62,788 nt of DNA, taken from Candidatus Omnitrophota bacterium (lineage in GTDB: Bacteria; Omnitrophota; Gorgyraeia; Gygaellales; Profunditerraquicolaceae). Position numbers and translations under genes: made by a program. The DNA lies in the NCBI GenBank assembly GCA_018825985.1, contig JAHKAP010000035.1:1-62788 (forward strand), given 5' to 3'. Shown here piece after piece: positions 1-60,708 of the stretch (position 1 is the stretch's first letter; each line of letters opens with the position of its first letter). The notes under the pieces are model-generated. The model was not told the DNA's origin, did no database searches, and saw nothing but the letters and a program-made list of their open reading frames with translations.

Positions 1-55
1 ATTCATATTAGCCGGAGGGTCTGTAGCTACCTGCCTTTTTAGGACATTTAGAGAC

Positions 56-3000
56 TTGATCGATTACAGGATAAGGCAGGAGAAGGCGTTGACAATCGTT
101 TTTATTGCCCAAGAGGCAACTAACCTCTATCTGGATGAAGAGCCATTCTTAAGCCAAATCTGGCAATATCAGGGGTTCTTGGCGGGTAGAAAAATTGCCT
201 TCTGGGGGTATAATTTTATCTCGCGAACCATCTTCGGCCAATACGCCGGAGATCCCCGGATCATCTTATTGATAACCAAGGGGCCCAAGGATGTTTTGGA
301 ATTGATAAGCGCAGGCGGGGACATCCTTTCGATTGTCTGCAAGGACGTCCCTCGATTGGTTGCAAGGATGTCCCCGAACGGGAGTTCGCCGATAAAAGAT
401 TCATTTTTGGATAATACGATTAAAAGATTCTTAGAGAAGCTCCTTTCCGCCGCGCCTTATCCCGCAAAACTGAAAGAGGCAGAGAAGATATACCCGGATA
501 CCTTTGATGCCCGGGAGTTGGTAGATGTCCTGGGTTTATTAAAAGAGACGATCATAGACGAGATTGTCGTAGGTTTAGGCGGTGTATCCCGGGTGTATCT
601 TGATAAAAAAATCAAAGAATACCTTTTTATAGCCATAGGAGTCCTGCGCTATAGGTTAATGGATGCAGCAAAAAGAGGCCCGATAGACCTGAGGCACTAC
701 CAGGAGATAATCAGGTTAATGCATTTCTTTACCGAAGATAAAAGGATAGCTATAGATATCGAGACCGTAAAACCCCAGGTCTCCACAGCTTACCATAGAT
801 TAGCAAACCAGTATTTTATTACCGGAGATTTATCTCAGGCAGAGGAATACTACCGCCGGGCCCAGTACTTTAGCCCGGAAAAGGCGATGTCGAATCTTGT
901 CCGAGGGAACAGGTTCTTCCGCCAGGCAAAGTTTAAAGAGGCCTCCTGGGAGTATGTCCGGGCAAAAAACCTCGGAGTTATTTCTCCGGAGCTGCGTAAA
1001 ATAATGCGCAGTAATTTAGGTTATACCTTTGAGATGCTCGGAGAGAACTCTTTTGCGGTAGAAGAATATAGGAATGCTTTGGGTTTAGACCCGGAAAATT
1101 ACCCTCTGGGCTTAGGGATAGGCCTATCTCTTATAAGGCTGGGTCTTTATCCGGAGGTATTGGAAGATTTCAGCCGAAAGGGGCTCTTGGAGGCGGAGAA
1201 CTTTGCCGGCCTTCTTAATATGCCTGATTCGCTAACGTACTTGGAGATGGCGGACAAGACAATTCAGTTTTGTTCGGATAAGAAACTTCTCCCGGATAAG
1301 TTTTTAGCCGAATTAGAGGATTTGGTTGAGGCGCTGAGTATTGTGTCCAGGCAGGAATTCGAGGGCCTTTCCAGCAGCCCTATAAAATTAGCTGATGCCT
1401 TTGTCACTAAGTTGCCGTTATTATTTACTCCTGAAGGGGCAAACGACTTCAGGAAGATAAAAAAAGCCCTCGGCAACAATTCTTTTAACGTTTTGTTTGG
1501 CCCGGCTTTCGGAGCGGATGTTTTGCTGTCCTTGTACCTTTTTGACCCCAGCATTATCTTAGCCGTGGATATGTTGGCTTTTGGCGAGTCTAAAGAATTA
1601 GGCAAATCCGCTTTATCAGGTATTAGGGATGAATATATTAAAGAGAAGAGGTGTCCCGGAGGATTCTCTTGGACGAGTACTTTGAGTAGAAAGATAAAAG
1701 TATTAGGGATTCCTATTTTATTAGAGCTGGAACTTTTAGGCCTTAAGAGAAAAGATATAAACCTAGCGATTAAAGGCAGGAATACTGCCGAGATTACATT
1801 TGTTTTGCCTAAGAATATCGACTCCGCAGGCAGGTTAAGGAAGGTCGTTTTCTTCGGCGGACTGGATGTTAATGATTTAGGTTCTTATCCCAAAACCCTT
1901 AAGTTGCTTATGAATAGGATTGATGCGTGTATGTATAAGGCTTTTTCGCCTTTCTATATAGAGGCAAAGACTTGGGATTTCATACTTTCCGGGTTCCGTA
2001 AAAGCGGGGTGATAGTTTCAGACAGGGGAATATTCCTAACCAGGAAGGGGAGAAAAAGAGTGTCGCATACTTACCACACGGAGATCAGCTTTGGGCATAA
2101 TCATTTTTATTCCTGGGGTAGAGGTGGCACATTTATTTACGAAGTGAAAGCTAAGACCTCTAGCTCTCCGGTCGGAGCCTTAATGCGCACTTATTCAGAG
2201 TCAACCCACAAACAATCCAGCAGCCCTATCGGTTCATATGACAAAGAAAAGATATTCTTGGATCCTTTATCTGTTGGCTTCCCAGACGAGAAATTCCTTG
2301 TTAATGGAAATTTATTTGATTTTTCCAGACGTCTTATCCTTCACCTGAATTTTTATAATCATAATTCAGGAAATTTGGGAGGTATTGAATTACTCTTACC
2401 CGGACACCTTATTAATTATATCTATGTGGAGCCGAAAGTTAGAGGCCAGGGACTGGCGAGAGCCTTCTTAATTACCCTATTTAAGATTATTGAGGATGGG
2501 TGGATAGAAGAAAATCTAAAAATGGGCATGTTTAATATGTATGTGCGGCATCCCTTACTAGCAAAAACGTTGTTAAGGCTCGGCTATGGCCATACTCCCG
2601 TGATAGGGGCAGAGGGTTTTAGCACGGAATTGATTTTAGGCAAGACGCTGGAGAATAAGAAAGTTCCGGTATATATACCCGATCCGGTAAAGAGAAAAGA
2701 TTTCATTATTTATGTCTCTGCAGCCGGAGAAGACTATAACATGCTTTTTATAGAGGATAAGCTTATTCGGGGAGATGCGGTAAGGATATATGAAACATAC
2801 TATCTTAAAGACGAGGATACATTCCGCAAACAAGTTGACAATTCTAGCATTAGAATAAAGGAAACTGTTTCCAAATCAATCGGGACAGTGGGTAATGGCG
2901 CCAGCTCGGCGGTGAGCCCGGGAGGCTCATATTATGCCGAACTATTTAAAACATTCGTGCGTACTCATCAGTGGACAGATATCATAGAATTAAGGCGGCA

Positions 3001-6000
3001 ATTGACCAGTCAGTTCCGGTTCCCCAATGAGTTTGTCCATCATTTACAGGATCATAAAGGCAAAATACAGTTAGCTGTTCTGAAAGTACATAACTTTAAG
3101 CAGCAATTCATTATGCGGGGTTACAATTTAGGGGTGGGGCATAAGTTGGGAGCTATTGCCGCGGCTAAGGTCATCCGCTACCAGCTCAGGATTGCCCTAC
3201 AGGAACAAATTAAGAGGATGGTGGATAACGGTCTAATGCCGTCTGAAACACAGTGCAATATCTATAACGCGGGGCCGAAATTCCGTATTATTTTCCGTTT
3301 CAGTCAGGATATGACAAATGAAAAGGCGGCGCAGGAGATACTGCTGGGTGTCTTGGCAGAACATTCGGGCTTTAAGGAAAAGGTTATTAGCGGAGTGAAA
3401 GACAGATCAGGCATTGCAGAATTGCTGCATCATTTTTCAACCAAAAACTTTTATATGTACGGCGGCGTATCAAGCCTGCACCAGGCAGGGATAAGCGATT
3501 TAGATACAGCTTTGTCTGTAGCCGACAGGATACAACAGGAGGCCGGCAAGGCCGCAAATATTGTCCATATCAGGTATTGCGCTGACTATAAACAACTGTT
3601 AAGCCGGCTTAAGGAAATCGGGGATTTTACTATCAGCCTCTATAAGATGCATAAGCGTGAGGTGATACTGCGCAGGTTGCATCAGGTTATTCTCTTTCAA
3701 GAGAAGGACGCGGTGGAAACATTATCTGAGGAGATTCAGGAGGAAATAATCGCGTTAGAGGCCTTGGGTTTAGATAAGGAATTGGTTGATTTTGATCCTG
3801 TGTCAGATCAATTTAGGCACCGGGTGAGTTTTTTCGAACACGGGATTGAAAACTATGAACAGTGGTATCGTTTTCTGGATACGACGCGCATAGAACAAAG
3901 CCCGGAGTTATTATTCTTGCGGGGAGTGCTCTACACTAGCGAGCTCAGCGGGGCTAAAGACAATATTTTATTCGGCTATTCCAATTTCAGGAGATTCATC
4001 AACTATATCTTGCGGCACAAAGTGCCCTATTCATTTCATGCGGTCTTCAGGATGGGGGTAGAGTCTGATGAGTTTGTTGCTCTATTGTGGAATGCGCAAG
4101 AAGAAAAGTTGGCTTTATTTTGCTTTGATACCTCCAATACCGGGGATATCGGTACATTCCACGGCCGCCGGACCGCTAACGAAATGCTGGATAAAATGGG
4201 TTTGTTGCTCAAGCGTGTCTTTTCCCAAGCGGTGCAGAAAGGATCTTTTAAGGCATGGCTTATGCATATCCGCCAGACACTGCCCGGGGTATTGGATAAG
4301 GAGTTTGAGGATGTTTCCTATCGTCTGACTCCCGTGATATATCCCTTGCTGCAGGATGAGGTATTACTTAAGGATGTGCGCAGGCAGGTTCTTTCTATGC
4401 TGGATCGGGATAGCGGCGCGCTCTATAAGGTGAGATTTACCGTCCCGGAGAAAACAGGCAACAGGAACTATAGACCGCTGATACGGGATATATCCGGCAA
4501 AGAGATAGCTTATTCTGAATCCGATCCGCCATTCTTTTTTGAAAGTGTGGGCGGTTATCTTAAGGTGGTATCCAACAAATTCAGCATCCTGGCAGTTTCC
4601 TTGGCCGAATATAATATATTGAAGAAGAAACAATTGTTAGTAGTTGATGGCGGCCGGGATTATGACGTGGCGGTGTGGGTAAAGCCTGCCTTTTCAGGAG
4701 GATGCCTTACCTTGAGCACGAGGCATATTCGGGATTTCAGCAGAGACTTCGGTGATTTGCAATGGCCGGCGGATTACCGCGCAGAATACGTTAAGCGCAG
4801 GAGAATAATCCCCTACCAGATGCTGCACTATGGCGCATTGCCCGCTAAGAAAATTATAGGCACAGAGAGGGTTGATATCAGCAGGATTTCCCGCAAACTC
4901 CCTTTATTTAAAGAGAAGCCGATTCAGGCAGGCGTAGCCCTGGCTATTCTCTCTCGGATCGAGGCCGAACAGAAAGAGATAGGAGGAGACGGTAATGTTG
5001 CTTCTTCGCCGATGGAACAGGAAATGCCGCTTCTCGCAGGAGACATGCACAAAGAGGGATTATGTGTTATGAGTCGGGCGCATCATGTAATCGATTTTGT
5101 CTGTTTGCCCGAAGATTTAATCAGAAAGTTTGCTGCCGGAGGCAATGCTATGGCGCAGATTTATCTGGAGGCGCGCAATATCGGCAGGGATTTTTCGGAT
5201 GATGATTGGCTGGACGCGTCTAAGTGGGAGGTCTTTGCTATGTTGGGAAAGATGGAGCGCGCTTTTCTTTCCCAAAGGGACAAACTAAATGCGATGCAGT
5301 TTAGAGAAAGGCTTTATTCTCTATACGGAATATGCGTGGTGGGGATGAACCTGATGGATATCTGGCATTGTGGCCCGGTTTCCGTGGGTTTGGCCCGGTC
5401 ATTGAGGGGTTTAGGGTATGACCCGCGCCTGTTCCGTAATAATAAGTACGCTTCGGCCATGCTTGAAAAGTTCATCCATCCGGAGAGAATAAGCAAGGAT
5501 GATAGATTTGACCACATCTTCGTAGTTGATAATGCAAACGGAGAAGGCGGAATTTACATTGATTTCAGGGCCATGCAATTCCTGGAAGAGATAAAGGGGG
5601 TTAGGGATTTATTGCGGGAAACCGCAGTTTTTCTAAAGAATCATCAACAATCCAGCAGCCCGGTTGAGAAAGCCGGGCCGAGCCCTTACTTTCAAGACAG
5701 CGCAAAGGCTTCCCAAAATGGTGTTGTGTTTCGGCGCGTAACTCCCGAGGCATTCTCCGGCACAACCCTGATCTTCGTCCACGGTAAGGGAGTGCTTGAT
5801 GTCTATAATTATTTCACGCGCCTGCTTAGGCCATCTCTGCGCAGGCAATATCTGCCCCATTACGACCTTGTCTGCTGGCAGGAAGGATCCCCCTTGAAAC
5901 AGTTTTTAGGCCTGGGTTTTGAGATGGTTTCTTTCCCTCACGCTACTCTCAATCCCAAGAACATACTTATGAACGTCGAAGAAATAAGCAGGAAGATTTT

Positions 6001-9000
6001 TATCCCGGCGATAGAGCGCATCTTCCAAACGCAACCTTTTCTTAAGGGCGGTAAAATAGTAGTGGTGGGATACAGTTTCGGAGCGATCCTGGCTTCCTAT
6101 AACAGCGGTTTCTTAAGGAACAGGGGAGTCAGCGGGTTAGCCTTGATTAATCCGGTATTTTCTTTTAATAAGGGAGTATCCGAATGGATGAGGCTACAGA
6201 CGGTTTTATTCTGGGATATCCTCTCCCGGATCTACCTTAGGGATTACCGTAAAGGAATACACCGCCAGCTTATAAGGGGGACGCCGGAAAATAAGGCGCT
6301 TATGGAAAAAATTAACGCGGAGATCAAACAATGGGAGGAAAATGAGGTAATCCTGGTCAGCACCTTTACTAAAGAGGGAAGGCCGGTAGCCAGGAAAAAT
6401 AAAGGCTGGATTGAGGATATGCTTGACCGCCTGGCAACTCCTGAGACCGACGGTGTTACTGAATTGGCCGGTTTCGATGCCGGGGCCAAGAATATACCGG
6501 TAATAAAAATCGAAGGCGTCGACCACAGCGGCGCATTGTGGGGCCAAGACAAGAGGGTTTTAAGCATTGTGAGCAACTTTTGCCTTAATAGGTCTCCTTC
6601 CATTTCTCCGATTGTATTTAACGCCTCTTCAGAACAAAGGAATTTTATCGCGGCATTAACCCAAAAAGAGCCTGGTTTTTCTCACCTGCCTAAGGCTGAA
6701 ATAATAAAGCGCAGCAGAATCCGGGGCTATAGCAATTTTATGCAAGTATATGAAACAGAAGATTGCCCCGGGCTTGTTTTTAAGATACCGAATCCCTCAG
6801 ACGGCCTGATCCTATATCCTCAAGAAGCCGCCTGTATGCAGATTATCGCCGATAGAATGATTAGCAGGGAAGTGAGGATCGGCGGCTGGAGGCTCGTTAA
6901 GATTGTGCCGTTTGTGCCAGTGGCATATGTAGACGGCATCATTGTCCAACAGAAAGCAATACCCGTTTATAAGCAGGGCAGGACAGAATCATGGCTCTCG
7001 ATAACAGGCAGGATAACGCAGAAGTTAGAGAAAAATAGGATTCGTTACCGTTTTCCTGATTGGCTAAAGTATGAAAACGGAGATATAGGGTGGGTAGGAA
7101 AAGAGGATGGGAGCGGGGACGTGGAGCCAGCTATTCTCGATAACGGGTTATTCTTCCCGCTTGAATTTGTAGAGGCATTAAGGCAAAGGGCTGAAGAGGC
7201 GGTAGATATCTTGCCCCTGGAAGAAATTACGCAAGTCATCGGCAGGTTGGGTTATTACTCTGCCTCTTTTTTGAAAATATGCTATGAGAAACAGACATAT
7301 GATTGGATGGCCCCCAGCCGGCATGATCTGGAATTTGCCGGCCGTTATTGGAAAGAGATATTTGGAGGGACCACGTATAAGGAAGCAATAGCCAAGGTCA
7401 TCGGCACGATGAAAACAAAATACGCATCTTCTCCGGCGGGCAGGGATAGTCCCTCAATTAAAAAGCCCGGATTAAGAAACGCCGTAAAAATCCTAGGCGA
7501 AGAAGCAAGCGATTGTTTTATCCGCTGTAGGGTGTTGATAGAGAAGACAGCCGGTCATTTGAGATCGTTGTTACCTAAAAAGCAGTATAGCGATAAGTAT
7601 TTTAAGCCGAATGACGAAAATCTATCCACACTTGTTGTGATCCGGCCATTATTTGGTGGGCGTTCTGGTGTAAACGCGGCGCATAGAGCCGTGAATTTTG
7701 TTGATGGTAATTTAATCGTTACAGATGAACACCACCGTATTTTAGAATACTTAACCGGAGGAGATAGCGTCCTATCTTTTGATTATGATCTTGACAATCT
7801 AAGGCAGTATTCAAATAAGAAAACTACCGTTATTGCGCCTGCGGATCAGACTAATTGGGTCGTATGGGCGAAATTTAAGGGATGTAAGGTGTGGTTATGT
7901 ATCCCTTCGTGGAGAATAAAAGGAATCGATTCTTTGTTAGATGACCCTGAGAAAGACTTTGAACGGATTTTTTCAAATATCGATGAAATCCCAACAATTA
8001 CGGGAGATGTGGTAGTAACGTTTTGCCTGGATTATTTTGCGAATCGCTTTATGCCTCAAGGAGTAGAAGGTCCGGATTACGAGCGGGATGAGATGCGCCC
8101 TTTATTTGATGAGATTGAAGGGCAGATAAGAAGCATTGCTAATGTGCTTAAGGAAAGAGAAATTGTTGTTAAATTTGTGCACCTGAGCATATCCAGTCAA
8201 TATGCTTATGAAGAGTACAAAGATTTTGTGATACAGGAATTGAAAGAGCACATAGTGCCTCTTTTAGGATTATACAGTTCATCCTCCTCTGGACCCACTA
8301 TCAGGGACACCCTTGAGATTAGCCGCGAAGACGACCCCCGGCATAATAGGCATTCTTCCAGTTCCCCTATTCTGGAATCCGGCAGTAAGAGCGATAAGCT
8401 TACCGATAAAGAGAAGATCCGAAATCTCCTGGGGGCAGTCAGGCGCAGGGGCGATTCCAGGAACATGGTTTATTACCATGTAAAGATGGCTGTTTTTGCC
8501 CTTTTGTTGGCTGGCCTAAACCAGTTTTTATTCGGCTGGAACCCTATTTCTATTTTGCTCTGCGCCGGCCTTATTGTGAGCATAGAAGGCCCTCTATTTT
8601 TCTTCGGGATATTGTTGATGCGCGTACGGCTCTATGGCTCTAATGAAACATTAAACGTAATAACGATGTGCAGGGAGGAATGCGTAACATATAATTTAAA
8701 TTCAGCAATAATGCGTTTCCATAAAGACTATCTCTTATCCCCTCTGGCCTTGATACTTTTCTCGGAATATTTGGGATTGATTGAGCAAGATTTCTTATTT
8801 TGGTCCACTTCGGTCATGCTGATTAATGCAGGGGTTGCTAATACGGTTTCGGAATTGATAGATACAAAGCTGTACTGGAAGGATATCTACAGGGAGTTAT
8901 TTGGCAGTGTATCGGCAAGATCCTCTGTGGGCGGTAAAGGACAAGGTCGCTCTAGCTCTCCGGCGGCAGCATCCAGCCCAACAATCCAGGGCAGGCATAA

Positions 9001-12000
9001 GCGAAAAAGCCCATCTCTGCAGTTTAATTCTCTTGCCGAACAACTTAGGCCTGTTAAGGCAAAAAATGAAGCGCGTGAGTTGCCTATACAGGTAGAACAG
9101 ATCGCAGGTTCGCTTAAAGACAGAAATTTATGGGGAACACAAAATAAACCGATTATCGTTGTGTTTGATGCGCATGGGACATTGCTTGAACCGACATGGA
9201 AATTCGAGATTGCCGATGTCTACCATGATATTACCGGCAGGGACATAGGAGAAGGCTTAGTATGGGTGGAGCAAAACGCGATGAACGAGAATATAGATAC
9301 AATTGCGCAGAGGCTGTCTATAGCTTCAGAAATTTCTAAAGAGGATATAATACGCCTACTCGATGAAAGAATGCGCCATTACCACTTAAATTATATTCCT
9401 AAGGCAAGGCCGTATGCTCTGGAGTTTATTAAAGCGCTTAATATATTGGGTATTCCTCTATTTATAAGGACTGGTTCAGATACCGATTTAACAATTTCTC
9501 AATTAAAAATAAATGGCCTCTTGGATTTTATACCCCAAGAGCATATTGTGGGGAGTGAGCGAAATAAGGGGTTACGTAGCTCAGATACGATTGAAGCGCT
9601 CCACAGGCAATTTCAAAACCATAGAATTGTGTATTTTGATGATTGGGTGGGAGCGGGGAAAAAGCTCGTTGAAATCGGGGGTGTGTTTTTTGGCTTGCCT
9701 CAAGGGCCTACTGTTGAGAGCAATGAATTTCAGGGTAACAGGGAGGCGCTTATTGCCGACGGAGCCAACTATATACTTAGCGGCTGGCAGGATTATGAAG
9801 AAATTATTAAGTTGATATCGGTTGATAAGGAGGCTCAAAACAGGGACGAGGCGATCCCGGTTGCTGAGGGGGCGGCTAAAGAGCTTTATCCTATTATCCC
9901 GGCAGCCAGGCCAAACAAGATATCTTTGTTCATTGATATTTCCCGAGATAGCGACATAACCTATCATTATATGGAAAATGACCCTTTAGCATTTGGTATT
10001 AACGGCAAAGCGAATTATGATGATCTGGTGTTAAAGTTACAAAAAATCGTTACTATCCCGGACGCCCGCCTGATCACTCCCCAAAAATATATAGACACCC
10101 GCCTTGAACCGTCAATCCGTAATTTACTTAATCAGCTCCTTGCCGGACAAAAACGCTATACGAGATTTATGGATGTAATAGTTTCCTGGGACGCGGCTAT
10201 CGATAAGAATGTGTGGACCACCAACAGGGATACAATTTATTTCCTGGACATAGTTGATAAAGAAGGTGTATTTGAAGATGATACGGTTGAGCGGCTTCTT
10301 GAGATAGGAGTTGGAGGAGGACAGATTTCGGCAACTTCCGCCAAGCGGTTCGTAAACCTCAAAAGCCTTTCAGTCAGCGATATCAGTATCTACGCTTTGC
10401 GCTGCAGTTATAAAAATATCCTGCCTTATATGAAAAATGGCTTGGATTTGCATTTCTATTGGGGTAAGGGCATACGCACGATAAACGAGTATTTTGATGT
10501 TATATTTATCAACCCTCCTTATATACGGATCCCGCCGTGGCGTAAGCAGGATAATAAAGACCCCTATCGCGGGACCGGGCTTATCCGCGAGATATTGGAG
10601 ATAGGGGTACAAAAGCTTAATAGGCATAACCCGAATGTCAGAATCTTTATTAATGTTTCAAGCCTGGCAGAAAAAGATTTAATCCGCTATGTTGATGAGT
10701 TAGACGGCGAGTTTATTCTTAGCTCGCTGGGGCCGCGTTTAAACCTTCCGTTTAAGCATGCCCAGTTTTTAATTCAAAAATCAGGAAACTATCTGGATGT
10801 TCCTCTTAAGGTACAAGCTGTGGATGAAAAATGGCGGCAGTGGCTTATAGAAGAAGGCGGCCTGGAATACCGAAAAGATGTCGAAGATCATATGGAACCG
10901 TACTGGCATACTCTTCAGATGTATATGATAAAGCCTGCGCGAGCAAGCAGCTCACCGGCGGCAAAGGCCGGAGCGAAAAATATCTCCGTATTAAATAGGT
11001 ACGCCCCCAAGGATAAATTTAGGGTAAGGATTTATAGCGGAAAGGAGGATGATTTTTGGAGTTTTCAGGAAAGCCTGCGCCAGTGGCTTAAATATAAATA
11101 TGGAAAATTCCGATTCGATACCGTAAAAGATGACTCCGGCCGCATCATCAAAACCCCGCTCCTGCGTAAGTTCATAACCGGCATTGTCAATGGCAATACC
11201 TATTCTAACTACCGTTATATTTCCATCTGTAACGATAATACGCTCCTTGCTATGCAGGGGATTGAGCTGCATCCTGATAAAAATAATCCGCTAAGGATGA
11301 GGAAGTTTGTCGCAGCCAAGACAGTAATATCGCCTTTTATACGGCAGGATAAAAAATACGATACGGAAAAACTGCTGGCTCGCCTCTTTAGCGCTGTAAT
11401 CGGTTTTAGCAAAAACAATGGCTTTGGCGGGAAAATCTGGGGGATTACCGTAAGCACGGCAATCCTGCGGCATTTAGAAGGCTGCGGAGCGGTAATTATT
11501 CCTTTTAAGCTTATCAGCGGGATCAGGTCGTATATCTATATCCTTGAGCCAGAGGCAGCAGAAAGATATTTAGAGAGCCGACACTATGCCAGCTCACCGG
11601 CTCAGTTTTTGCAATCCTTATTTATCTCGCTTGAGCCGCTGGGATTAAATCGTTTGATAGAAGTAAAGAATAAGCATGGTTTTGAGGCCGCATTCTTTGC
11701 ACGCATAAGAAAAAAAGCGGGCAAGGAAGAAAAGATTTTTGTATTCCGATATCGCGCCTCTGAAAATAGCGGTTTTGCGGGGGCGTATAAAATAAGGGAT
11801 TTCGCATGCTATGAAATTGCAACCGGACAGGATCAAGAAATTTTTGCCGGGGGCCTGACTTATGTCATCCCACCGCTGGGAAGTCAAACCGCCTATACGT
11901 GGGTCAGGCAGCAGTATCTTAGCTTTTTGAGATATTATCCGGGTATGCAGGAGCACGCGTTTTTTGTGGCTGAACCATATCGCAGGCAATACTTCCTTGG

Positions 12001-15000
12001 GAATGGCCTCTTGGCATTAGCCGTGCAATATATGAAGAGATGCGATAGATTGAGCGTATATAACTATGCGTACTGGACGCCATCATCCATGGCAGTTCTT
12101 TTAAAATTACTCCCCGATATGACTCCCTGGCTAAGCATCAGCCATTTTAAGAATGAGCGCAGCTTAGAGACGTTGAGAGTAATCAGGGAGAAAGGTAAGA
12201 GCATCATACTGTCCTCTTGGTTAAAAAATGCCTTCTCGCCTATTGCCTTGAATCCATTGGCTGATAAGCAGCTATACGCCTCGTCGCTACGCCGCTCCAG
12301 TTCGCCTGCGCAGAAACCCGCCTCCTCACCGGCTGTAAATGCCATATATGATGCTTCTCAGCCGTATCCCAGATGGCATCTGTTAGAAAGTATTATATCA
12401 ACCGGCAAGCAAGGTGACATTATCCGGGAAAGGGGCGCCGCGTATTGTATATACGTATCCATATTTGACGCTTTAAAGAAGAAGGGGGCATTGATACATG
12501 CAGACATTGTATTGAGCAAAGAGAGGGCCCGGGAAATAGTATTATTTGCTTCTGAGAAGGCGGAGATAGCGTTGCAAGATGATGCCTATAGGCAAAAGAA
12601 TATTATCGCTGTTATCCTGCGGTCTGAGTATGATATGACATCAATAGAATTCAATTACTCCTGGGTGTTTTCCGATATTGGCTTACCCAGCCTGCCGACG
12701 GATATACATCCTTCATGGCAATTCAACAAGATAATTTTTTCTGTCGGCCGGGGAGAGATTTCTGCGTTAGGCGGGGATGGCGGGATTTTGCACTCCGTAA
12801 ATTTGGGTGATATCCGCGGTACCTTAAGCGGGGATGGCGCAGAGCGCAGCGCCTTGCGACCGAGCGAAAGCGAGGGAGTCCTGAGAGATGCCGGAAGCCG
12901 AATCGAAGGGCCGATCGTCCGCTCCAGTTCGCCGGCCGCCTCGCCGCTGGGCCGCTCCAGTTCGCCTATACGTAGAAGAAAAATCTCGAAGTCGCCTTTT
13001 ATTAAAGAAAGGCCAAAATTTCTGTTAATAATTTATAAAAGCATTGTAGGGTCTTTAGCAACTATCGCGTTCCTTATATCCCTAGATGCATTTTTTGGGC
13101 AATATTTCTTTGAAGCGGTAATAGTGGCGGCAGTATTTACTATTACAGCGGCTTTATACAAAAAACGTAAAGACAGGATTCAAAGAGAGAGGCGCACATT
13201 TTATATACGTAAATGGCCAAATAATACGAATCGCAAGGATAACGCCAGCTCGCCGGTGGCTGATTTATCCAGCTCTTCTTTTAATTTCCCCGTAGATTTT
13301 TCTCATGCGGCAGGAGAATGGATACCCGTTTCTACGGGGGAAATGGTATTTAAGGCTACGGTTGGCAGTATTTTGATTGATGGGAAAAATGTGTTACTGT
13401 CTCAGCCGCTGTGTGTTTGTAAGAAGATATTATCCAATCCTGGCTTCGCGCTCTGCCGGAACATAGTAGCTGTTTTATTGGATGAATATTTTCGCAAGAA
13501 AAATGAATATACTATCGCTCATATCCCTATCCCGGGAGGATGGTTTAAAGAAGGATACTTTTACTTTTTTGTCCGTGGCACGGATGGTTTTTCATGGGAG
13601 GTAATGACCTTAGAAGGCAGAGAAAATATCCAGATGCAAGAGTGGAATATATGCAAAGGGTTATTTTGGAAATTCGGTATAGATATAGGTTACGATATTG
13701 TTAATGCCGAAGACGCGTTAAGCAAAAATATTATTATCGAGGGGTATGATATAGAACAATTGTATCTAACATGCTCTCTTTCTAAGTATTGGACCAGGAT
13801 TGATTTTGGTTATGAGAGCCTGCCGGTCAGACTTAATCGTCTACAGGAGGCTATTAGAGAGGATAAGGCAAGCCTACGCAAAGTTTTAGGCTGGAGATTT
13901 AAACTGTTGGAATGCGCTGCTTATGGGATAGAAAGAGAATTTACTCCGCAGCAAAAAACATTATTTGAGAAGTTATTTGGTAGGTACCAGTTAGAAGAAT
14001 TGGAACAGTATATATATTCGCACAATATTGTTTCTAGCCCTGTTACCGGGGACACCTTTGAACTTAGCCGTAAAGATGTCCCCAGATTGGCTGCAAAGGC
14101 GTCCCTGAAGATATTGGGGGAGGCGGTAGATATTATTGAGTCATTCGCAGATCACAGATTTAAATTATACCTCACCGGCAGCCTGGCCCGGGAGATTATC
14201 CGGGGGAGTAAGGATTTTAAGGTGACAGATGTTGACCTGGCGCTGGGGTTATCAGGGAGGCTTGAGCGATATTTAGAGGCTCTGGCCAGTATTCAGACGC
14301 AGTTAAATCTGGAATTTGCAGATAATGTGCACCTGGCAGCAGTGCGTTACGGAAGGCTGTATAAAATTAATGATGAGCTTAAGATTAAAGATACTGGCGA
14401 GATATTGGGCGAGGGTATTTATGACCGGGCCTCCGCAGAAAACCGCAGGAAACTGGTCTTAATACAGATTGACAGGAATTTTAAGGTATTCTTACAAAGG
14501 ATGATCGGGGAGCGACTTAAGATTAATTCAGCTTTGGAAGTGCAGGCTGTTTTTCCAATGCATATCAGGCCTTTTGTTTTGCTCTGTGAGATAGCCAGCG
14601 CCATAAAAGAGACTCGCGGCATAGATATTTATATTACAATCTTAAACGAAATAAAAGAAGAGGTGCTGAAGGTCAGTCAGGCTCTTGGTGATATCAAAGA
14701 AGCTAATCGTGATAAAGCTGCATGGCCGGTGATGGAGGCGGTGGAGCCTTATCGGAGCTATGCCCACGGGGTTTTTTACGTATCTCAAACACACTACTTT
14801 CGGTGTGAGTTCTTTTCTCCGGAAGGAGAACCTGTCCATCCGGATAATGATATATCTTCTTTATTGCAGCAGTTTCTTAGCAATACAATCATAGGCAGGA
14901 ATGGGATAAAGATTGATGTTAGTTTTCCTGCTGACGAGCCGGATAAAGAGATTACCGAAGCGCAGAAAGCGGAGATCTTCGCTTTAATCGGATACTTAAG

Positions 15001-18000
15001 CCCTATCCGGGAGAACACCTCTGATAGTAATAATTCATCTTCGCCGATACCTGAGAATAACTTTATAAATACGGAAAAGGTTGGTGAGAAATTAAATCAA
15101 TATCAGTTTGACCATCATTTTGAGATGCTACAGCGGTGGATGCATATGTATCCGGTTATCTGCGGAGACAGCGTGCACACTATCTGTAAGTTTTTATCCG
15201 AGACATTTCATCACGATTTCTCAACCAAAGAGGAAAATTCTTTTCCTTATCTGGAATTCGCTTTTGTGGTCTTTACCGGAGACTTTGCAGCGCGCCGCTT
15301 ATGGGATATTGTCAGAAGCATGGTTTACGCCGGAAATGATAAGGACTTGAGGTTACATCTTTGTTTGAAAATTTACTTTTCCGAAACCAACAGCTACCTT
15401 ATTGACGGAGCAGCTAATGTATATGATAAAACCTATGATCGCAAAATAGCCTTTTTGCCTTATGAACAAGCGTTGAATGAACTAGGTTATAAAGAAAAGG
15501 GGCTCTTTTCCGACCCTCTTAAATTACTGCAATTTCTAAAGATAGTATCTGTTTCCAGCCCAGTAACATTCCCGACAGCGAAAGGGACTAAATTTCATAA
15601 TATTATCGAGCCAGGGAGAAAAGGATTCTGGCAGGCTCAAGACCCGGTTAAACTTGTATGCGCGGACTGCGTTGGTACGGTATTCTTTACCCGGGAAAGA
15701 AATATCTATCTGGCCCTGACAGACCCCCAGGCGTATAAACAGGATATATTGAATCAGTGGGAAGGATACGGATGTTTTGATGCCAGTAGAATTTTTGACA
15801 AGAATACCAAGGCGCTTATTTCTCATGTAATGAGAAGGAGTATACCCGCAGTATCGCTTAAGGCGTACCTTATTTCCCAGGGTTTAATTGAACAAAATAT
15901 ACAAATTGACCCCGCGCCTGAGGGTATAAACGAATTTGTCGAGAATATGATTTTATATGTCTGGCCGGATAAGGCCTTGAAAGTCGCTTATGATATTCCC
16001 AGGATTTTCAGGAGTCCGTATATCGTTGTTAACCGTTATTGGCTGGATTTCGGTTTTACCCTGTTACGTATTTCTTCCAGCCCCATCACGGAAACTGTTT
16101 CCAAGTCAATCGGGACAGTGGGTAATGGGGCCAGCTCGCCGATTGCTACGAGAGTGATAAAGCCGGGGGTACCAGTAGGCACATCGGTATATAGAATTAC
16201 TAAGCCTGAACAATTGCGCCAGTTTATCGGAGAAGGCGTGGCCAAAGTAAAAGAATACTGGGATCATGCAGTGGCCTATAAAATAACGGGGAATAGAGAG
16301 AGATTAAGCGCGTATGCATTTATATACACCTATATAAGAGGCGTTAAGGTTAATGGCCTTTACCAGTCTGTAGGAGGGACGCGGCATAAAAGATATCCGA
16401 ACGAGGTGGATGCGATTATAGACGGGCTGGAACTTTCTAGAGATATGACATATAAGAATGCTTTGGCCGGCATTCCTTTAGGTGGAGCAAAGGCAGTTCT
16501 TATGAATAAAGATAAGGAAATCTTAAAGATTTTTGCTTTGACACTTGAGGCTTTAGGAGTAATGCTCACGGGCCAGGATGTAGGCATATCTGAGGAAGAT
16601 GTGAATTATATGGCTGGATTCGGACCGCATGTAATTTGCGGCACGCCGGACAGAGCCTTGGGTGGCGAACCCACTGCTCCTTATACCTCTCTGGGGCTTT
16701 ACCACGCCACAATTGAAATGATTAAAGTGGCACATGAAAGAAGAATTCTAAGTTTTCATTCGCCAAACTTAAAAGATTATGGGTTTGGCTTACAGGGGTT
16801 AGGCGCGGTGGGAAGCAGGGTTTTGGAACATTTACTTAACGCCGGGGCAAGGGTGTATGCGACAGATGAGAAATCATTTGTTATGGCTAGTATTGCTAGA
16901 GAGCACTGCGAGGCTATATCAAGCGGCCAGTTAATATTAGTGAGGCCGCAGGAAATTTATAAAGTTAAAGGCGCGCAGATTTTTTTACCATGCGCCTTAG
17001 GCGGGGTATTAAATAATGTGACCATTCCATGGCTTTCTGATGCAGGTTGCAAAATGATTATTAGCGGGGCGAACAATGATTTAGATAAACCGGAAGAATA
17101 TTACAGCCACCTTATTCTTGAGAAAGGCATGATTCATATGCCGGGTTTTGGCGCTAATTCGGGAGGGGTATTAGCTGCCTTATGTAAAGTGGGAGGATAT
17201 GATTTAATAGAGAAGGTTACCCAAGGGATCCCCGCCAGGGTAAGACAGATTGTAGAGATATCCCTTGATGAACGCAGGCCTTCCTATGTGGTTGCAAAGG
17301 AGATTGCTAAAAAAATCGTGCGGCATTCAAAGATAGATTGGCAAGCCAGAGAGCAAGCCGCCTCGCCGGTAACCAGATATTCCGCAGATGAAGCGGTTAA
17401 GCGATGGATATATTTATGGCAAGAGATTAAATCCGGCCAAAAATTAGGTTTTAAATGTAAAGATATGCCTTTATGTTTAAATATAGCATTAAACATTATT
17501 AAGCCCCTTGATAGCTCAGAGCCACAACAATCAATACGACTTACTGTTGTAGATCTTGGGCATAAGCGAAATAAAGTTCAGGCCTGGCTTACTTATCACT
17601 ATGATAAGCAGATTCGTCTTTTAACACTGGCGGAAATTAAAGGAAGTCGTAGGGTAAAAGGATTAGGGGCGGTATTGGTATTAGAAGCTATAAGCCGTCA
17701 TCGGGAAGCTGAACAGGTTGTATTCAGCCGCCCTAAGAAAAAAGGCCGGATATTAATTAAGAAGCTGGAATATGTTGGCATCATCTGTAGCGTAGAGACA
17801 ATTGTTCAGCAGGGGAGGCTTTGGAGAATCTTGGGTTCGCATTTTGCAGATAATAAAAGAGCATACATCATTTGGGTCCGCCTAACTAACCTTACCACTG
17901 CTACATCTTTTGTTTCCAGCTCACCGGCCGCCTCGCCGGTGGAGAACGAAAATGTAGAGTATCTTTCAGTAGAAAGTAAAATAATGGAGGGGCGCCAGGA

Positions 18001-21000
18001 TATAATAGATGCTTTATCTAAAGGGAAACAGCCTCCTTTATTTGAAGTACAGTTTCATCCAAGCGCTATTTGCAATAATAGATGTCTTGGGTGTATCGGA
18101 ACAGCCATTAACGCTATCATTAAAAGCGATGGACGTAACTGCAATGCCCTATTGCTTTCCAGGGAACAGTTTTCTAAGGCTTTCGCAGATATAAGAGAAT
18201 ATAATGCTTATATAACGAGGATTCCCGGACAGCGTCCTGTCGAGCGCCTGATATTTTCCGGACTTACCGGAGAGCCAACCTGTAACAGATATGCTATTGA
18301 TGCGTTGAGAGAAGCCGCCGAATTAGGATTTCATAATACCTTATTAACAAATGGAAGGCTTCTAAATAATGATCGAAAGAAGGAAATCGTAATTACTTCT
18401 GTTAATGATATCATTGTTAGTTTATATGGAGCTACGGCTAAGGCCTATGGATTTGTCGCAGGGGTAGATGAAAGTGCCTTTAGGCCGCTTATAGAAAATA
18501 TAAGAGGATTGGTTCAAATAAGGAATATTAGAAAGCTTGGCAGCAAAATAGGAATCGCGTTTTTAATTGAGCGCGGAAATTATAAAGGAGTCATAGCCGC
18601 TACAAAGATAGCCTATGAATTAGGAGTAGATTTTATAAGATTTAGGGCTATTATGCAGGCTAATGAAAGGATGTTAGCCCCGGAACAGTGGAAGGAGTGC
18701 GAAGAAGGCCTGTCTTTCGCTAGAGAAAAGTATGAAACTGATAGCTTTAAGGTTATGGTTACCTCTGATGATAAGAAAACTTCGCCTAATGCGGAGAAAA
18801 GCTGCTTAAACTGCGTTGCTTGCCAAATCATGCCAGTGATAGGGCCTGATTTCAAGGTTTACCCTTGCCCTCACTTAAGTTATTTCGGCGCGGAAGATTA
18901 TGGTTCTCTCGAAAATTCTTCATTAATTGAGATATTGACGGGAGAACGAAGCAAACGGTTGATTGAAAGGATTGTTTCTAACCCAACTGATATTGTTTGT
19001 TCGCCAAGAAGGAGCAGGATAAATGAGCTTTTTAAGACAATAAAAAGCGGTTCCTCCAGCTCACCGGTGGGTTCGACTTTTGGTTCTCGGTTTCTGGTTC
19101 TCACAAGCACCGAGCACCGAGCACCGAGCACCGAAGGCGCCGCCTCGCCGTTTGGCCAGCTATCAGCTATTATCCGTCAGCTATCGGCTAAATATAGCTC
19201 CAATAGTTTACCGGCTCAGCCAACCGGATCCGGTTTATTTGCGGAAATATTTTTGCACCGGCCCAATGATAAAAGCTCTGAATTTGAAGGTAAATATTTT
19301 TTGATCCATACGAATGATTTACCATTCTTCAGGAACGAAGTTAGAAACTTGCCTGTAGTGGAAGGTATTGTTACTCACTTATCTGTGGGTATTGGCAGAG
19401 CCCGGAAGAACGGCCTTAAGTACGCAGGCGTCGCTATTCCAGCCCCGGGGACTAAATACGGCTTTGTTATAAAAGGCAATAGATGCGCCTCCAGCTCGCC
19501 GGCCGCTTTGCCGCTGGCGCACCGTGCACAGTTCTATCATAAATCATCTTCCGCTATAGAGTTAGACAGAAACGATCTAAGTAGTAGGCTGCAGGCTCAG
19601 GCTGTCTCCCGCCTTGAGGGCGGGTTTAAACAGAACAATTGGTATGCCATAAAGTTTAATTCCAGCGAAAAGCTGATTATTGATAAGGCCCAGTCCAGAG
19701 TAGAAAAGTTGTTAAGTCCTTATTATAGAAAACAGCTGGTTCGATGGAGGCCCGTTGATCCTCATGAATGGGGGCTTATTTTTATTACTCCTATAACAGC
19801 GTGGTTTTCGCCTTTTGTTTATCTTACCTATAAAGGTAGATTCAAGAGCGATCTTGATAACCAGGATCATTTTATACGGATTAGAATAGGCATGAGCGAG
19901 CAGGATCTTTTCCGCGTAACGGCTCATGAAAAAATACATAGCTTGATCCATTCGGGGGCGTTAGAAATAGATGAAGACAAGGAGATGGTATTGGCGGAAG
20001 CCATTGCCCTTATCGCTTTATTCCAGGAATATGGGATTATAGAACCGGATTATTTTAATTTAAGCGGAACTCCTCCCATGATCGTGGCCGCCATAAAAGA
20101 AGGGGAGTTCTTGGTAAACAATGGGGAGTTTAGTATTATCGAAATACGACAGAGAGCAGCGTTGCGTGAAGAGTATTATTATAAGGCAAGTTATTGTTTT
20201 ATTGCAAGGATGGTGGGGCGACTGACCCATGTAACGTTTAATTCAGAACCCTACTTGACCTATATTTATCAACGTATGCTCACCGGAGCCGTCCTAAAGG
20301 CGATAAGGACTAAAACACAGGAAGGTAATGTGTATCAGGAAGCTGTGTCTTTACTGATAAGTATGAGTACCGGTCTTCAGGATTTTTTTGAATCGGATTA
20401 TTCCATTCGCCGCAAACTGTCGGCCCAAAGAAGTTCAGGTGTTGATTTTAAGTTTTCTGTTTCTGCGGATGCGGACCCGCAGGGTCAAGAGCCCGGACAG
20501 ACAGTTTCCTCTTCGCCGGTAATTATTAAGGAACAGACCCAGTGTCCCGAACAACTCGGAAACAGTTTCCCCTTTGGGGCGGTTGTGGGGATGTTGTTAA
20601 GGGTGGCTCATTCCTCTTCGCCGGTTAATGATATTAACCAGGAGAGCTTGTACAATACCGTCAATTTAATATTGGAGTTAGGGGAACCAAAGAATTATCC
20701 GCTGGCATTAGTATTATTAGATGAGCTTTTTAAATATGATCCCCAGGATATAAGAATAAAGGATATTTATCTTGATCTTGCCGGCCATAAAAGAGGATAT
20801 GTTGAAAATGCCATTGATAAACTTGAAGAAATTATCAATACCCCGGATTTCTTTTCTCCGGTAGCCCATTATATACGGGCTATACTGAATTTTGATAAAG
20901 GCAATTTTAAAGAGTGCATAGCTGATTTGGATGAAGCGGTTCGGCTGTCCAAGGGTGTAGAAAATCGGACCAGGTATATTTTTGAGAAAATCCGCTATCT

Positions 21001-31999: not shown

Positions 32000-32875
32000 A
32001 TGAAAACTGAAGTTAAAGTAGTTGATAATGCTAAAAGAGAGATCTGCGTAGAGGTGAGCGGAGATGTGGTTAAGAATAAATTCGAGGATGTTTTTAAAAG
32101 GATCAGCCAGGAGGCTAAGGTCAAGGGTTTTAGGCCCGGGCATGTTCCGCGGGACATATTAGAAAAGAATTATTCTTCGTTAGCGCATGAACAAGTGATA
32201 CGGGAGCTGGTCCCGGATATTTACGGTGAGGCTTTGGATAAGGAAAAACTGGCGGCTATAGACCTGCCTCAGATAACCGACGTTAAATTGGACAGAAATT
32301 CGCTTTCTTTCAAGGCGAGGTTAGAGATAATGCCGGAGATAACGGTGAATAAATATAAAGGTTTAAAAATTGAATATCAACAGGCTCAGGTTAATCCTGA
32401 TGAGATCAAGCGCAATATCGATTCGATTAAAGAGTCGCGTAAGGCTGAAATAATTGACGATAATTTTGCCAAGAATTTAGGTTATCCCGGTTTAACCGAG
32501 CTGGAGAAAGTAATGCAGAGGCAGCTCGCTGCCCAGAAAGACAGCCAGCAGCGCCATAATATAGAAAGCCAGGTAATTGAGCAGCTCATCAAGGAACTGG
32601 ATTTTAAACTTCCGGAGTCGCTGGTAAAAAAACAGCATGAGGATCTGCTCAGGCAGACCAAGATGGACTTGGCGATCAAAGGGGTGCCCAAGGAAAAAAT
32701 TGAAGAACAAGAAAAGAAGATCGCTCAGGATTTGGAACCGGAAGCTAAAAAACAGGTAAAGATCTATATGATTTTATCTGCTATAGCCAAGAAAGAAAAT
32801 ATCGCTGTAGATGACCATATGCCGCAAAAGGTAATGGAATTTTTATTCAGAGAAGCAGACTGGGTAATTAAATAA
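32000..32875 (+). CDS. tig: trigger factor-like chaperone lacking the PPIase domain
   Basis: The N-terminal ribosome-binding domain carries GFRPGHVP. After about 125 aa the sequence runs directly into the C-terminal arm-type region ([20 protein letters not shown]...). It is only 291 aa. Confidence 0.7.
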
Positions 32876-34799: not shown

Positions 34800-36386
34800 A
34801 TGTTTAAAATTTTAGTTAGCGATTCTTTATCCGAGGAAGGCCTAAAAATATTAAAGGGAAATAAAGATTTTCAGGTTGATGTCAAAATCGGGATGAAGCC
34901 CGAAGAACTAAAGGCTGTAGTCGGGGATTACGATGCTCTTTTAGTCAGGAGCGCCACCAAGGTAACTAAAGATATTATTGCCGCGGCCAACAAGCTTAAG
35001 GTAATCGGCAGGGCTGGAGTAGGGCTGGATAACGTGGACCTTCCGGCAGCAACCGAAAGAGGCATAGTGGTAATGAATACTCCGGCGGGAAATACCATTT
35101 CTACTTGTGAGCAGACTTTGAGCCTTATTTTATCTTTGGCCCGCAGTATCCCTTTGGCAAATTCTACTACCAAGGCAGGGGAATGGAGACGTTCCAAATT
35201 CATGGGAGTGGAACTTTACCAGAAGACTTTAGGCGTAGTCGGCCTGGGCAAGATCGGTTCAGAAGTGGCTAAACGGGCGATCTCTTTCGGGATGAAGGTT
35301 TTGGCATATGATCCTTATTTATCCCGTGAAGCAGCCCAACACATGGGGATCGAAGCAGTAGAATTAAATGAATTACTTAAAACAGCGGATTTTATTACGG
35401 TTCATGTTCCATTAACCGAAGATACCAAATATCTGATCTCAGACGAGGAATTTACTCTGATGAAGAAGACTTGCCGGGTGATTAATTGCGCCCGGGGAGG
35501 GATAATCGAGGAAAAGGCGTTGATTAACGCGCTTAAAGAAGGCAAGATAGCCGGAGCGGCTTTAGACGTATTTGAAAAAGAACCTCCGGATCCGAATTCG
35601 GAATTATTAAAGATGGATAATGTAGTGGTCAGCTGTCATTTAGGGGCTTCGACCGAAGAGGCCCAGGTGAATGTGGCTATTGAGGTGGCTGAATGCGTAC
35701 GGGATTTTCTATCCGGCAAAGGAATTCGCAATGCCGCCAATTACCCGAATATCGAACCGGAGCTATACAAGATCCTTCAGCCGTATATAATTATGGCCGA
35801 GAAACTGGGGGATTTTTCCGGCCAGATAATTGAGGGGAGGATTAATGAGATTAGCATTCAGTATAGCGGTGATATCACCAAGTATAATACCGCTTCTCTG
35901 ACCATGGCCCTGGTCAAGGGGCTTTTAAAACCGGTATTAAAAGATACGGTCAATTTTATTAATGCCATTCCGATCGCCAAAACCAGGGGTATTCAGATCA
36001 AGGAGACCAAGACCCTGGTGGAAGAAGATTTTGTTAACCTGATCTCGCTTAAAATAACCACTGATAAAGAGACCCGCAAGTTTGCGGCTTCGCTTTCTCC
36101 GAAGAGAGAGCCTAGGATCGTCAAGATAGATGATTTTTATGTTGAGGCTGCTCCGTCAGGATACCTGTTGACGATGAAGAATTGGGATAAACCGGGGATC
36201 ATTGGGAGTATCGGAACGCTTTTAGGAAAACATAACATTAATATCGCGGCAATGACTTTTGGCAGAAAGATTGAAGGCGGGGAGGCGGTAAGTTTATTGA
36301 ATGTGGACTCACCAATCTCTCCTGAACTTATGGAGAAGATCAAAAAGCTGGATAATATATTGGCTGTAAAGGTTATAAAGCTATAA
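34800..36386 (+). CDS. serA: D-3-phosphoglycerate dehydrogenase (with ASB/ACT regulatory region)
   Basis: GVVGLGKIGSEVAKRA (NAD Rossmann), INCARGG and a C-terminal ACT-like domain. ATG 34800 lies 6 nt after AAGGAGG; ATG 34794 abuts the RBS. Confidence 0.85.
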   Translation: MFKILVSDSLSEEGLKILKGNKDFQVDVKIGMKPEELKAVVGDYDALLVRSATKVTKDIIAAANKLKVIGRAGVGLDNVDLPAATERGIVVMNTPAGNTISTCEQTLSLILSLARSIPLANSTTKAGEWRRSKFMGVELYQKTLGVVGLGKIGSEVAKRAISFGMKVLAYDPYLSREAAQHMGIEAVELNELLKTADFITVHVPLTEDTKYLISDEEFTLMKKTCRVINCARGGIIEEKALINALKEGKIAGAALDVFEKEPPDPNSELLKMDNVVVSCHLGASTEEAQVNVAIEVAECVRDFLSGKGIRNAANYPNIEPELYKILQPYIIMAEKLGDFSGQIIEGRINEISIQYSGDITKYNTASLTMALVKGLLKPVLKDTVNFINAIPIAKTRGIQIKETKTLVEEDFVNLISLKITTDKETRKFAASLSPKREPRIVKIDDFYVEAAPSGYLLTMKNWDKPGIIGSIGTLLGKHNINIAAMTFGRKIEGGEAVSLLNVDSPISPELMEKIKKLDNILAVKVIKL

Positions 36387-58032: not shown

Positions 58033-58135
58033 CGGCTAGCGGGTCCTGCCCGAAGGAGGCAGCTCTTGGGCCCCTCCGCCCGGTGTGGATCCTCCCAATC
58101 GCCGCCATCCTTCGGTCACCCGCTAGCAGACCTTT
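58033..58135 (+). other. GC-rich ~100-nt structured element closing with an 11-bp stem and U-tract (large terminator or boundary element)
   Basis: GGCTAGCGGGT ... ACCCGCTAGC encloses internal hairpins (CTGCC-cgaagga-GGCAG) and is followed by CTTTTTT. It marks the switch from the core block to AT-rich island DNA. Confidence 0.5.
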
Positions 58136-58145
58136 TTTATCAAAT

Positions 58146-58191
58146 ATTTCTTTGTTGAGAATGAGGGTGTTTAAAATATGTCTCGCTATCC
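58146..58191 (+). repeat. degenerate copy of the island junction element
   Basis: atttctttgttgagaatgagggtgtttaaaatatgtctcgctatcc aligns loosely with ttctttgaaaatagtgagttagatttggtctcttctcgcgtctatt at 61812. Confidence 0.35.
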
Positions 58192-58224
58192 AAAAAATGA
58201 TTACTCTATAATGAGAGGAAATAT

Positions 58225-60591: not shown

Positions 60592-60640
60592 AACTAGGGG
60601 ACGGTTCTGTTTATTTGGTAATTCTGAGACTGAATAATTA

Positions 60641-60659
60641 GGGACAGCGACTATTTTTT
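60641..60659. repeat. solo left arm of the GGGACAGCGACTATTTTTT palindromic element
   Basis: Identical 19-mer to 33501-33519, but no matching right arm follows. Confidence 0.7.
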
Positions 60660-60674
60660 AAACTATAGTAAATA

Positions 60675-60708
60675 GGGACACCCCGTAATTCAATCGGCAG
60701 GGTGTCCC
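60675..60708. repeat. hairpin repeat AATAGGGACACCC-N16-GGGTGTCCC
   Basis: Arms at 60675-60683 and 60700-60708. A homologous element lies at 62575-62608. Confidence 0.75.

Follow-up and report, generated by a model that had tools for sequence, protein, structure and literature searches.

Giant genes of Omnitrophota reach more than 100,000 codons, and it is a recognised puzzle how they are built and whether their products stay one chain or are cut. The multi-enzyme giant proteins of this phylum (10.64898/2026.06.07.730766; 10.1101/2023.11.21.568195) carry many enzyme and regulatory domains (methyltransferase, GNAT, HAD, radical SAM, receiver, TPR) on one long open reading frame (ORF). They have been read as membrane-anchored cytoplasmic proteins (10.64898/2026.06.07.730766). 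Processing of giant proteins has already been suspected, and their cleavage points were stated to be unknown, which blocks piecewise structure prediction (10.1101/2023.11.21.568195). Here we describe a stretch of 62,788 nucleotides (nt) from a Candidatus Omnitrophota bacterium (assembly GCA_018825985.1, contig JAHKAP010000035.1), referred to as the window. It encodes a giant protein punctuated by a short Ser-Ser-Pro (SSP) peptide, which we call the joint. The window gene and its SSP-joint relatives come from the same phylum, have the same architecture and belong to the multi-enzyme metabolic cluster class of giant proteins (10.64898/2026.06.07.730766). A separator motif, a conserved DNA joint and module permutation are described in neither of the two publications, and literature searches for joint peptide strings and bacterial polyproteins returned nothing relevant.

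Viral polyproteins, such as those of picornaviruses and potyviruses, likewise yield several complete proteins from one ORF with a short conserved junction peptide. Unlike these, the giant gene lies on a bacterial chromosome amid housekeeping genes and no cognate protease was identified. Its junction is also conserved at synonymous sites, and close relatives carry reshuffled sets of modules in a different order. Vibrio MARTX toxins are effector arrays whose strain-variable modules are exchanged by recombination and whose unstructured linkers are processed by an internal cysteine protease. They resemble the giant protein as large bacterial proteins with variable, unrelated enzymatic modules between linkers, but where MARTX modules are cytotoxic, those of the giant protein are of metabolic or regulatory types. 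Cleavage in MARTX linkers follows a Leu, and no nucleotide motif is fixed in them. RTX-type repeats and the C80 cysteine protease domain had no Pfam match in the visible window protein or in the relatives L026/L030, L028 and L022.

Integrons and shufflons (R64 Rci/sfx) likewise have a short DNA site in the same orientation at each cassette boundary, and their cassettes vary in content and order. The shufflon site, like the joint, is part of a coding sequence and is translated. The giant gene differs in that no recombinase is seen in the 41 kb downstream, the 13-nt site lacks inverted repeats or a hairpin, and all cassettes are read as one protein. In polymorphic toxins, a conserved junction peptide and its DNA (VENN in CdiA, PxxxxDPxGL in Rhs) mark the swap point and are linked to processing. 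Such proteins contain only one junction, which precedes a C-terminal toxin paired with an immunity gene, whereas the giant genes have dozens of junctions, enzyme-like modules and no immunity genes.

The giant ORF spans window positions 2..21763 (+) in frame 2 with no stop before 21763. Its left edge is open, and it encodes at least 7,253 amino acids (AA). An artefact of assembly is excluded for the ORF, since an independent assembly (GCA_018824565.1, here L025) aligns with window positions 11568-31763 without gaps at 99.75% identity. Approximately 24 modules of 60-930 AA follow one another with the joint between them. All 32 positions listed in the original prediction, which had counted about 30 copies by eye, were reproduced in the translation. 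They comprise 27 S-S-P sites, four A-A-S-P sites (12935, 17357, 17927, 19139) and one degenerate ASSAV (2900). The accompanying estimate that S-S-P lies far above chance agrees with a shuffle test and with the other ORFs of the window. There are 27 SSP in the giant ORF compared with 1.58 +/- 1.2 expected (5,000 composition-preserving shuffles, maximum 7), and 22 copies of [AS]SSP[VIA] compared with 0.05 expected from shuffles. SSP occurs twice, and the full motif never, in the window's 34 remaining ORFs (12,372 AA). Information is limited to five residues, namely a small residue (S, A, sometimes V/G/T), S/A, S, P and V/I/A/L. One residue outside this core the background level is reached, and the flanks are mildly enriched in polar residues and not of low complexity. 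A generic linker would be variable in length and of low complexity, whereas the core length of the joint is fixed at 4-5 residues.

The joint is constrained both as nucleotide and as peptide sequence. Codons were counted over 61 joints at six loci, and the DNA analysed comes from six independent genomes. The DNA consensus is TCC AGC TCG CCG G, with GCC GCC TCG CCG G as a second form, and the 13-mer always lies on the coding strand in constant codon phase. The Ser at position -1 is encoded by TCC in 36 of 50 cases (8.4 expected), the first Ser of SSP by AGC in 41 of 61 (15 expected), the second by TCG in 36 of 61 (6.7 expected) and the Pro by CCG in 45 of 61 (23 expected). Third codon positions of the joint hold 0.4-1.1 bits, compared with ~0.03 in the flanks. 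Because codon choice is position-specific and third positions are informative, a signal exists at the nucleotide level. This DNA-level conservation of the joint is new here.

The exact 13-mer TCCAGCTCGCCGG is present at 14 joints in six loci, where ~0.1 would be expected from codon usage, and the GCC GCC TCG CCG (AASP) form is present at 15 or more joints. On the coding strand, 36 in-frame sites match the 12-mer TCCAGCTCGCCG that begins this consensus with 0-1 mismatch, whereas other frames and the opposite strand have none. When up to two mismatches are allowed, the giant gene of the window contains 11 copies of the 13-mer and the remainder of the window one (0.94 expected). TCG-CCG encodes Ser-Pro at 62 of 125 joints, compared with 8 of the 73 other Ser-Pro pairs in giant genes and none of 29 in neighbouring genes. 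Conservation around the joint does not extend beyond ~16 nt.

The peptide is constrained in its own right. When joints are defined by DNA alone, at 1-2 mismatches from the 12-mer, synonymous changes account for 34 of 61 mismatched bases, compared with 28% expected (p = 4e-6), and the remaining mismatches mostly replace the Ser at -1 by Ala. The x-S-S-P-aliphatic peptide persists in joints with 7-10 mismatches in their DNA. After Pro, the constraint is on the class of residue (GTN, GCN, ATH, CTN), with the third base free. It had been proposed that codons vary between copies and that this argues for selection on the peptide. Variation is present but far from random, and the peptide constraint is real, but codon variation is no argument against a signal in the DNA.

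The joints bound modules that correspond to whole proteins. In four family members, none of 105 motif sites falls inside a Pfam envelope (13.7 expected, p = 4e-7). BLAST alignments end within 5 AA of a motif at 27 of 133 internal ends (6.4 expected, maximum 16 in 2,000 randomisations), and confident AlphaFold blocks begin and end at joints. The placement of the motif at module boundaries in the original prediction is thus upheld, and its examples of joint-flanked domains (ELFV dehydrogenase, radical SAM, alpha/beta hydrolase) are correct. The module from ASSPI to AASPV aligns with residues 36-344 of Leu/Trp dehydrogenases (361-364 AA), and a 120-AA module of a relative aligns with residues 9-87 of the 88-AA HPr. 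AlphaFold modelling of the Leu dehydrogenase (LeuDH) module used 45 aligned free-standing LeuDH sequences. The block with a predicted local distance difference test (pLDDT) score of at least 70 covers model residues 34-441, and the joints are at 33-37 and 442-446. The last module is modelled confidently from 3-5 residues after its SSSPV. In the predicted models the joint peptide is exposed and unstructured, 4-5 residues just outside the folded modules.

Pfam families across the window giant protein include TPR, alpha/beta hydrolase, HAD, MTS methyltransferase, ELFV dehydrogenase, radical SAM/SPASM and GNAT-like domains. Each is present in one or two copies and none is dominant by copy number. 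Most modules of the SSP-joint family are without annotation. The giant proteins of this family have transmembrane segments, and no signal peptide was seen in them.

Relatives were found in other metagenomes by an exhaustive representative search with the last module. Word-indexed protein searches with residues 2255-7253 and with the last module gave no matches and missed even the 99% identical P0001. A search for the same punctuation in giant ORFs of related genomes, suggested earlier as a check, was positive. SSP is 15- to 20-fold over expectation in P0002, P0004-P0007, P0009, L026/L030, L028 and L022. The giant ORF of L026/L030 (JBDRLN010000018.1) encodes at least 10,387 AA with an open 5' end, above the 10,000 AA that define the class, and carries 39 SSP and 52 [ASG]SP[VIAL] sites, and that of L028 encodes 5,753 AA. 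Pfam modules in the relatives include HPr, CheR and other methyltransferases, peptidase M23, B12-radical SAM, iPGM, ATP-grasp, GH77, HD and GNAT. GGDEF, receiver, LOG-like and alanine dehydrogenase modules were read by eye in P0009. The last module of the window protein is free-standing in P0003 and P0008 and internal in P0005 and P0006.

The modules stand in different orders in different genomes, with the breaks at the joints. The near relative L001/L026, whose MsbA is 90% identical to that of the window, has only two modules in common with the window giant protein. These are the last module at 65% identity and a GNAT-like module (residues 5768-5980) at 33% identity in another position; the rest of its giant ORF is unrelated. 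P0005 and P0006 have one module in common and diverge exactly at the next joint. The pairs P0006/P0009, P0004/P0009 and L026/P0009 have single common modules bounded by joints within 1-8 residues, and module order differs among P0005, P0006 and P0009.

One pair of strains, the window and L025, was compared over window positions 11568-31763. There are 41 differences in 10.2 kb of the giant gene and 10 in 10 kb downstream, a fourfold higher density. The giant-gene differences (24 non-synonymous, 17 synonymous) are concentrated in three patches. The 96-AA membrane mini-module between joints 12956 and 13244 holds 21 of the 41, and the two other patches start near joints 14030 and 20612. This pattern suggests module-wise allele replacement between the two strains.

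We favour a combined reading, with a probability of roughly 0.45, in which the motif joins the cassettes of an in-frame array and is also an exposed linker, probably a processing site. Its recombination half stands at about even odds, and its cleavage half somewhat below that. The giant gene is a chain of complete, independently folding proteins with one short joint at every boundary. Recombination, slippage or microhomology-guided joining between joint copies could delete, duplicate or swap whole modules. Such joining would keep the reading frame because the joint DNA is on the same strand and in the same codon phase. It would explain both the near-complete module differences between close relatives and the synonymous conservation beside unrelated modules. 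The joint peptide would be a recognition site, most likely for endoproteolytic release of the component proteins from the chain, and the product would then be a bacterial polyprotein; such cleavage is plausible. We infer that recombination actually uses the joint. The case for release draws on the whole-protein modules, the oligomeric free relatives of some of them, the sharply defined motif and the published suspicion of processing.

Several points weigh against this combined reading. At 13 nt, the joint falls short of what ordinary RecA-dependent recombination requires. Inverted repeats are absent from it, as is any excess of secondary structure, and the 41 kb downstream of the giant gene contain no recombinase or integrase. 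The patches of strain differences end only approximately at joints, and one extends at least 24 nt beyond. S-S-S-P-V fits no protease specificity known to us, and Pfam identified no chain-processing endopeptidase in ~26,000 residues of family members. Tandem joints are 4-20 residues apart, and cutting there would yield very small peptides. Judged from their sequence, the membrane modules appear to form helical hairpins, positively charged at either end, that keep both ends cytoplasmic. An uncut membrane-anchored chain is thus topologically possible. Finally, the 5' ends of all family members lie beyond the sequence covered. Extension along JBDRLN010000018.1 to at least 10,387 AA still did not reach the ORF start, and scans of metagenomes and viral contigs for the N-terminus of a family member found nothing.

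The Pfam scans matched peptidase families only twice: L022 has an M23 domain (a cell-wall peptidase), and L030 gave a weak match to an S33-type alpha/beta-hydrolase. Relaxed-threshold Pfam searches with 20 of the 24 single modules of the window giant protein found no peptidase, and Pfam scans of that protein detected no Cys-peptidase module. The HEKIH module (~residues 6498-6837), singled out in the original prediction for its HExxH motif, has no Pfam match, no solved-structure match and no confident model. The last module has no catalytic-looking invariant residues and was rejected as a protease, being a TPR and winged-helix (PCI-like) scaffold.

Other functions for the joint DNA were also considered. 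An attC-like hairpin or RNA structure was rejected since 80-nt windows centred on joints have z = -0.20 compared with -0.27 for controls (p = 0.47), and a raw difference in folding energy vanishes with composition-matched shuffles. A restriction site was rejected as CCGG is not avoided elsewhere in the window. A genome-wide repeat or uptake sequence was rejected as the 13-mer is confined to the giant gene and in frame. Internal start codons after the motif are excluded because the codons there include GCN, which cannot initiate.

The leading alternative, if an unlikely one, is that the joint serves recombination only. The 13-mer would be selected or regenerated, the peptide would be a tolerated linker, and the protein would remain an uncut membrane-anchored chain. 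The strongly conserved synonymous sites, the two discrete DNA forms of the joint and the permutation of modules between genomes all fit this proposal, as do the absence of a protease in Pfam scans and hairpin-like membrane modules compatible with an uncut cytoplasmic chain. It also agrees with the published view of the class as membrane-anchored and cytoplasmic (10.64898/2026.06.07.730766). However, the peptide constraint holds independently of how sites are chosen. Joints 7-10 mismatches off still encode x-S-S-P-aliphatic, and the residue after Pro is constrained by amino-acid class and not by codon. Free ELFV dehydrogenases of the LeuDH type are oligomers, which fits poorly with a chain that tethers them at either end. 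It seems rather unlikely that the giant gene is a translated, integron-like cassette array, in which a dedicated mechanism inserts, excises and permutes whole genes in frame at the 13-nt joint and the product is split there by a matching protease or during translation.

It is improbable that the joint is a site of serine-directed modification (phosphorylation, O-glycosylation) or a docking site (chaperone, prolyl isomerase) that regulates or protects the chain. A Ser-Pro core with small residues before and aliphatic ones after would suit such a role, and tandem clusters such as SSSPAASPV and SSSPAQKPASSPA are common in multi-site modification. The exposed, unstructured state of the joint in the models fits as well. 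However, no kinase or glycosyltransferase is encoded at the locus (41 kb of downstream genes). General bacterial O-glycosylation acts in the periplasm, whereas the modules are cytoplasmic enzyme types, and the nucleotide-level conservation would be left unexplained.

That conservation is what an event during translation at UCG CCG G would predict. A pause or a skipped peptide bond could assist folding or release of modules as they are made, and codon-specific conservation is expected of an mRNA- or tRNA-dependent event and not of a plain protease site. The 2A stop-go and SecM arrest peptides have a Pro at the equivalent position, where the joint has its invariant Pro. However, the 12-30 residues upstream, which 2A and arrest peptides need, are not conserved, there is no local RNA structure, and many joints use other codons. 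We also know of no stop-go event on bacterial ribosomes, and we regard this explanation as very improbable. Scarcely credible, and already disfavoured, is an ordinary Ser/Pro-rich interdomain linker with conservation inherited from segment duplication: such linkers are common in multidomain proteins and the ETVSKSIGTVGNGASS segment is visibly duplicated, but the length is fixed at 4-5 residues with only mildly polar flanks, the same joint stands beside unrelated modules in six loci of different genomes, and synonymous sites are conserved between unrelated flanks.

The joint is the first explicit candidate for both the cut sites and the gene reshuffling points of such giant proteins. It can be read from sequence and divides giant proteins into natural units that can be modelled and annotated. 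Exact termini to be sought in metaproteomes follow from it, and it offers a defined 13-nt sequence at which long-read population data could be screened for recombination breakpoints. If cleavage is true, a bacterium would be using polyproteins on a large scale; if recombination takes place at the joint, whole proteins would be shuffled in frame in a new way. A translated cassette array, if true, would combine integron-like shuffling with polyprotein expression in a cellular organism.

Another Omnitrophota MAG (metagenome-assembled genome) encodes a 2,049-AA multi-module ORF without SSP (L027:116-6262, JBAZUO010000031.1). It shares one module (46-48% identity) with the SSP-joint giants. Its modules are separated by a different, 35-AA element (GPFRDIGPTTHNQTPIDDFLNVPxLPDDE) in 3-4 copies, two of which are nearly identical over ~110 nt of DNA. 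On account of this different separator, we propose that separators that double as DNA repeats may be general in such giant genes, with lineage-specific sequences. Such separators are worth seeking in other giant genes, and that of L027 is already one.

The joints of the window and the modules with defined limits are listed in Table 1.

Table 1. Joints and delimited modules of the giant ORF, in window coordinates.
Feature	Position	Strand	Remarks
Joint GSSPI	380..394	+	GGG AGT TCG CCG ATA
Joint SSSPI	1370..1384	+	TCC AGC AGC CCT ATA
Joint SSSPV	2159..2173	+	2 mismatches to the 13-mer
Joint SSSPI	2216..2230	+	
Decayed joint ASSAV	2900..2914	+	Pro changed to Ala; DNA GCCAGCTCGGCGG, 2 mismatches from consensus
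Joint ASSPM	5000..5014	+	
Joint SSSPV	5651..5665	+	Directly 5' of the alpha/beta-hydrolase module
Joint ASSPA	7424..7438	+	
Joint SSSPI	8357..8371	+	Membrane-spanning module begins
Double joint SSSPAAASSPT	8951..8983	+	
Joint SSSPA	10946..10960	+	Follows the HAD and methyltransferase module
Joint ASSPA	11588..11602	+	
Double joint SSSPAQKPASSPA	12296..12334	+	
Triple joint SSSPAASPLGRSSSPI	12923..12970	+	Holds the left edge of a strain-difference patch
Joint ASSPV	13244..13258	+	GCCAGCTCGCCGG; end of the 96-AA two-helix membrane mini-module
Joint VSSPV	14030..14044	+	Peptide kept, DNA far from consensus
Joint SSSPI	15035..15049	+	
Joint VSSPV	15551..15565	+	
SSSPI, 19-AA spacer, ASSPI	16073..16144	+	N-terminal boundary of the LeuDH-type module
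Complete Leu/Trp-dehydrogenase-type module	16133..17374	+	Nearest relatives free-standing, 345-365 AA, 30-37% identity
Joint AASPV	17357..17371	+	GCC GCC TCG CCG G (second DNA class); bounds the LeuDH module C-terminally
Composite joint SSSPAASPV	17915..17941	+	5' of the radical SAM/SPASM module
Joint SSSPV	19055..19069	+	Radical SAM module ends
Joint AASPF	19139..19153	+	
Joint SSSPA	19490..19504	+	Exact 13-mer copy TCCAGCTCGCCGG
Joint SSSPV	20507..20521	+	
Joint SSSPV	20612..20626	+	Similarity to a relative's giant gene starts ~6 residues upstream
Last module, TPR solenoid and winged helix (PCI-like fold)	20615..21760	+	~380 AA; model fold

The peptide ETVSKSIGTVGNGASS occurs twice, at window positions 2858-2905 and 16091-16138 (~residues 953-968 and 5364-5379), and runs into ASSAV and ASSPI, respectively. 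As each copy runs into a joint, we conclude that segments adjacent to linkers were duplicated together with the joint.

A cluster domain of the SPASM type, known from peptide-modifying maturases, is also present in the radical SAM module (window 17930-19072). No link between this module of the window giant ORF and the Ser-Pro joint could be drawn. A sulfatase-type S-x-P-x-R site for it was rejected as Arg is absent at the required position. The last module resembles the PCI domains of eIF3a and the proteasome lid. In the two loci with annotated downstream genes where the giant ORF ends in this module, the window/L025 strain pair and L022, PilZ genes lie 3' of it.

The giant ORF is followed by ordinary Gram-negative housekeeping genes, nearly all on the + strand. 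They encode PilZ, CheR, MsbA, the KDO pathway, LptC/A/B, trigger factor, SerA, PurA, UppS, CdsA, Dxr, RseP, IspG, NusA, IF-2 and RuvB. The window MsbA is 90% and 70% identical to genes of two Candidatus Omnitrophota MAGs, and the downstream gene order is conserved. A 586-AA ORF amid these genes (window 36386-38146) has no Pfam match. The trigger factor (window 32000-32875, 291 AA) has the N- and C-terminal domains without the FKBP-type prolyl isomerase domain. At window positions 58000-62000, the G+C content is 0.33-0.37 compared with ~0.43-0.45 elsewhere. This stretch encodes a 788-AA ORF with only a faint match resembling nucleoside 2-deoxyribosyltransferase, followed by a NYN-domain ORF, and may be an acquired island.

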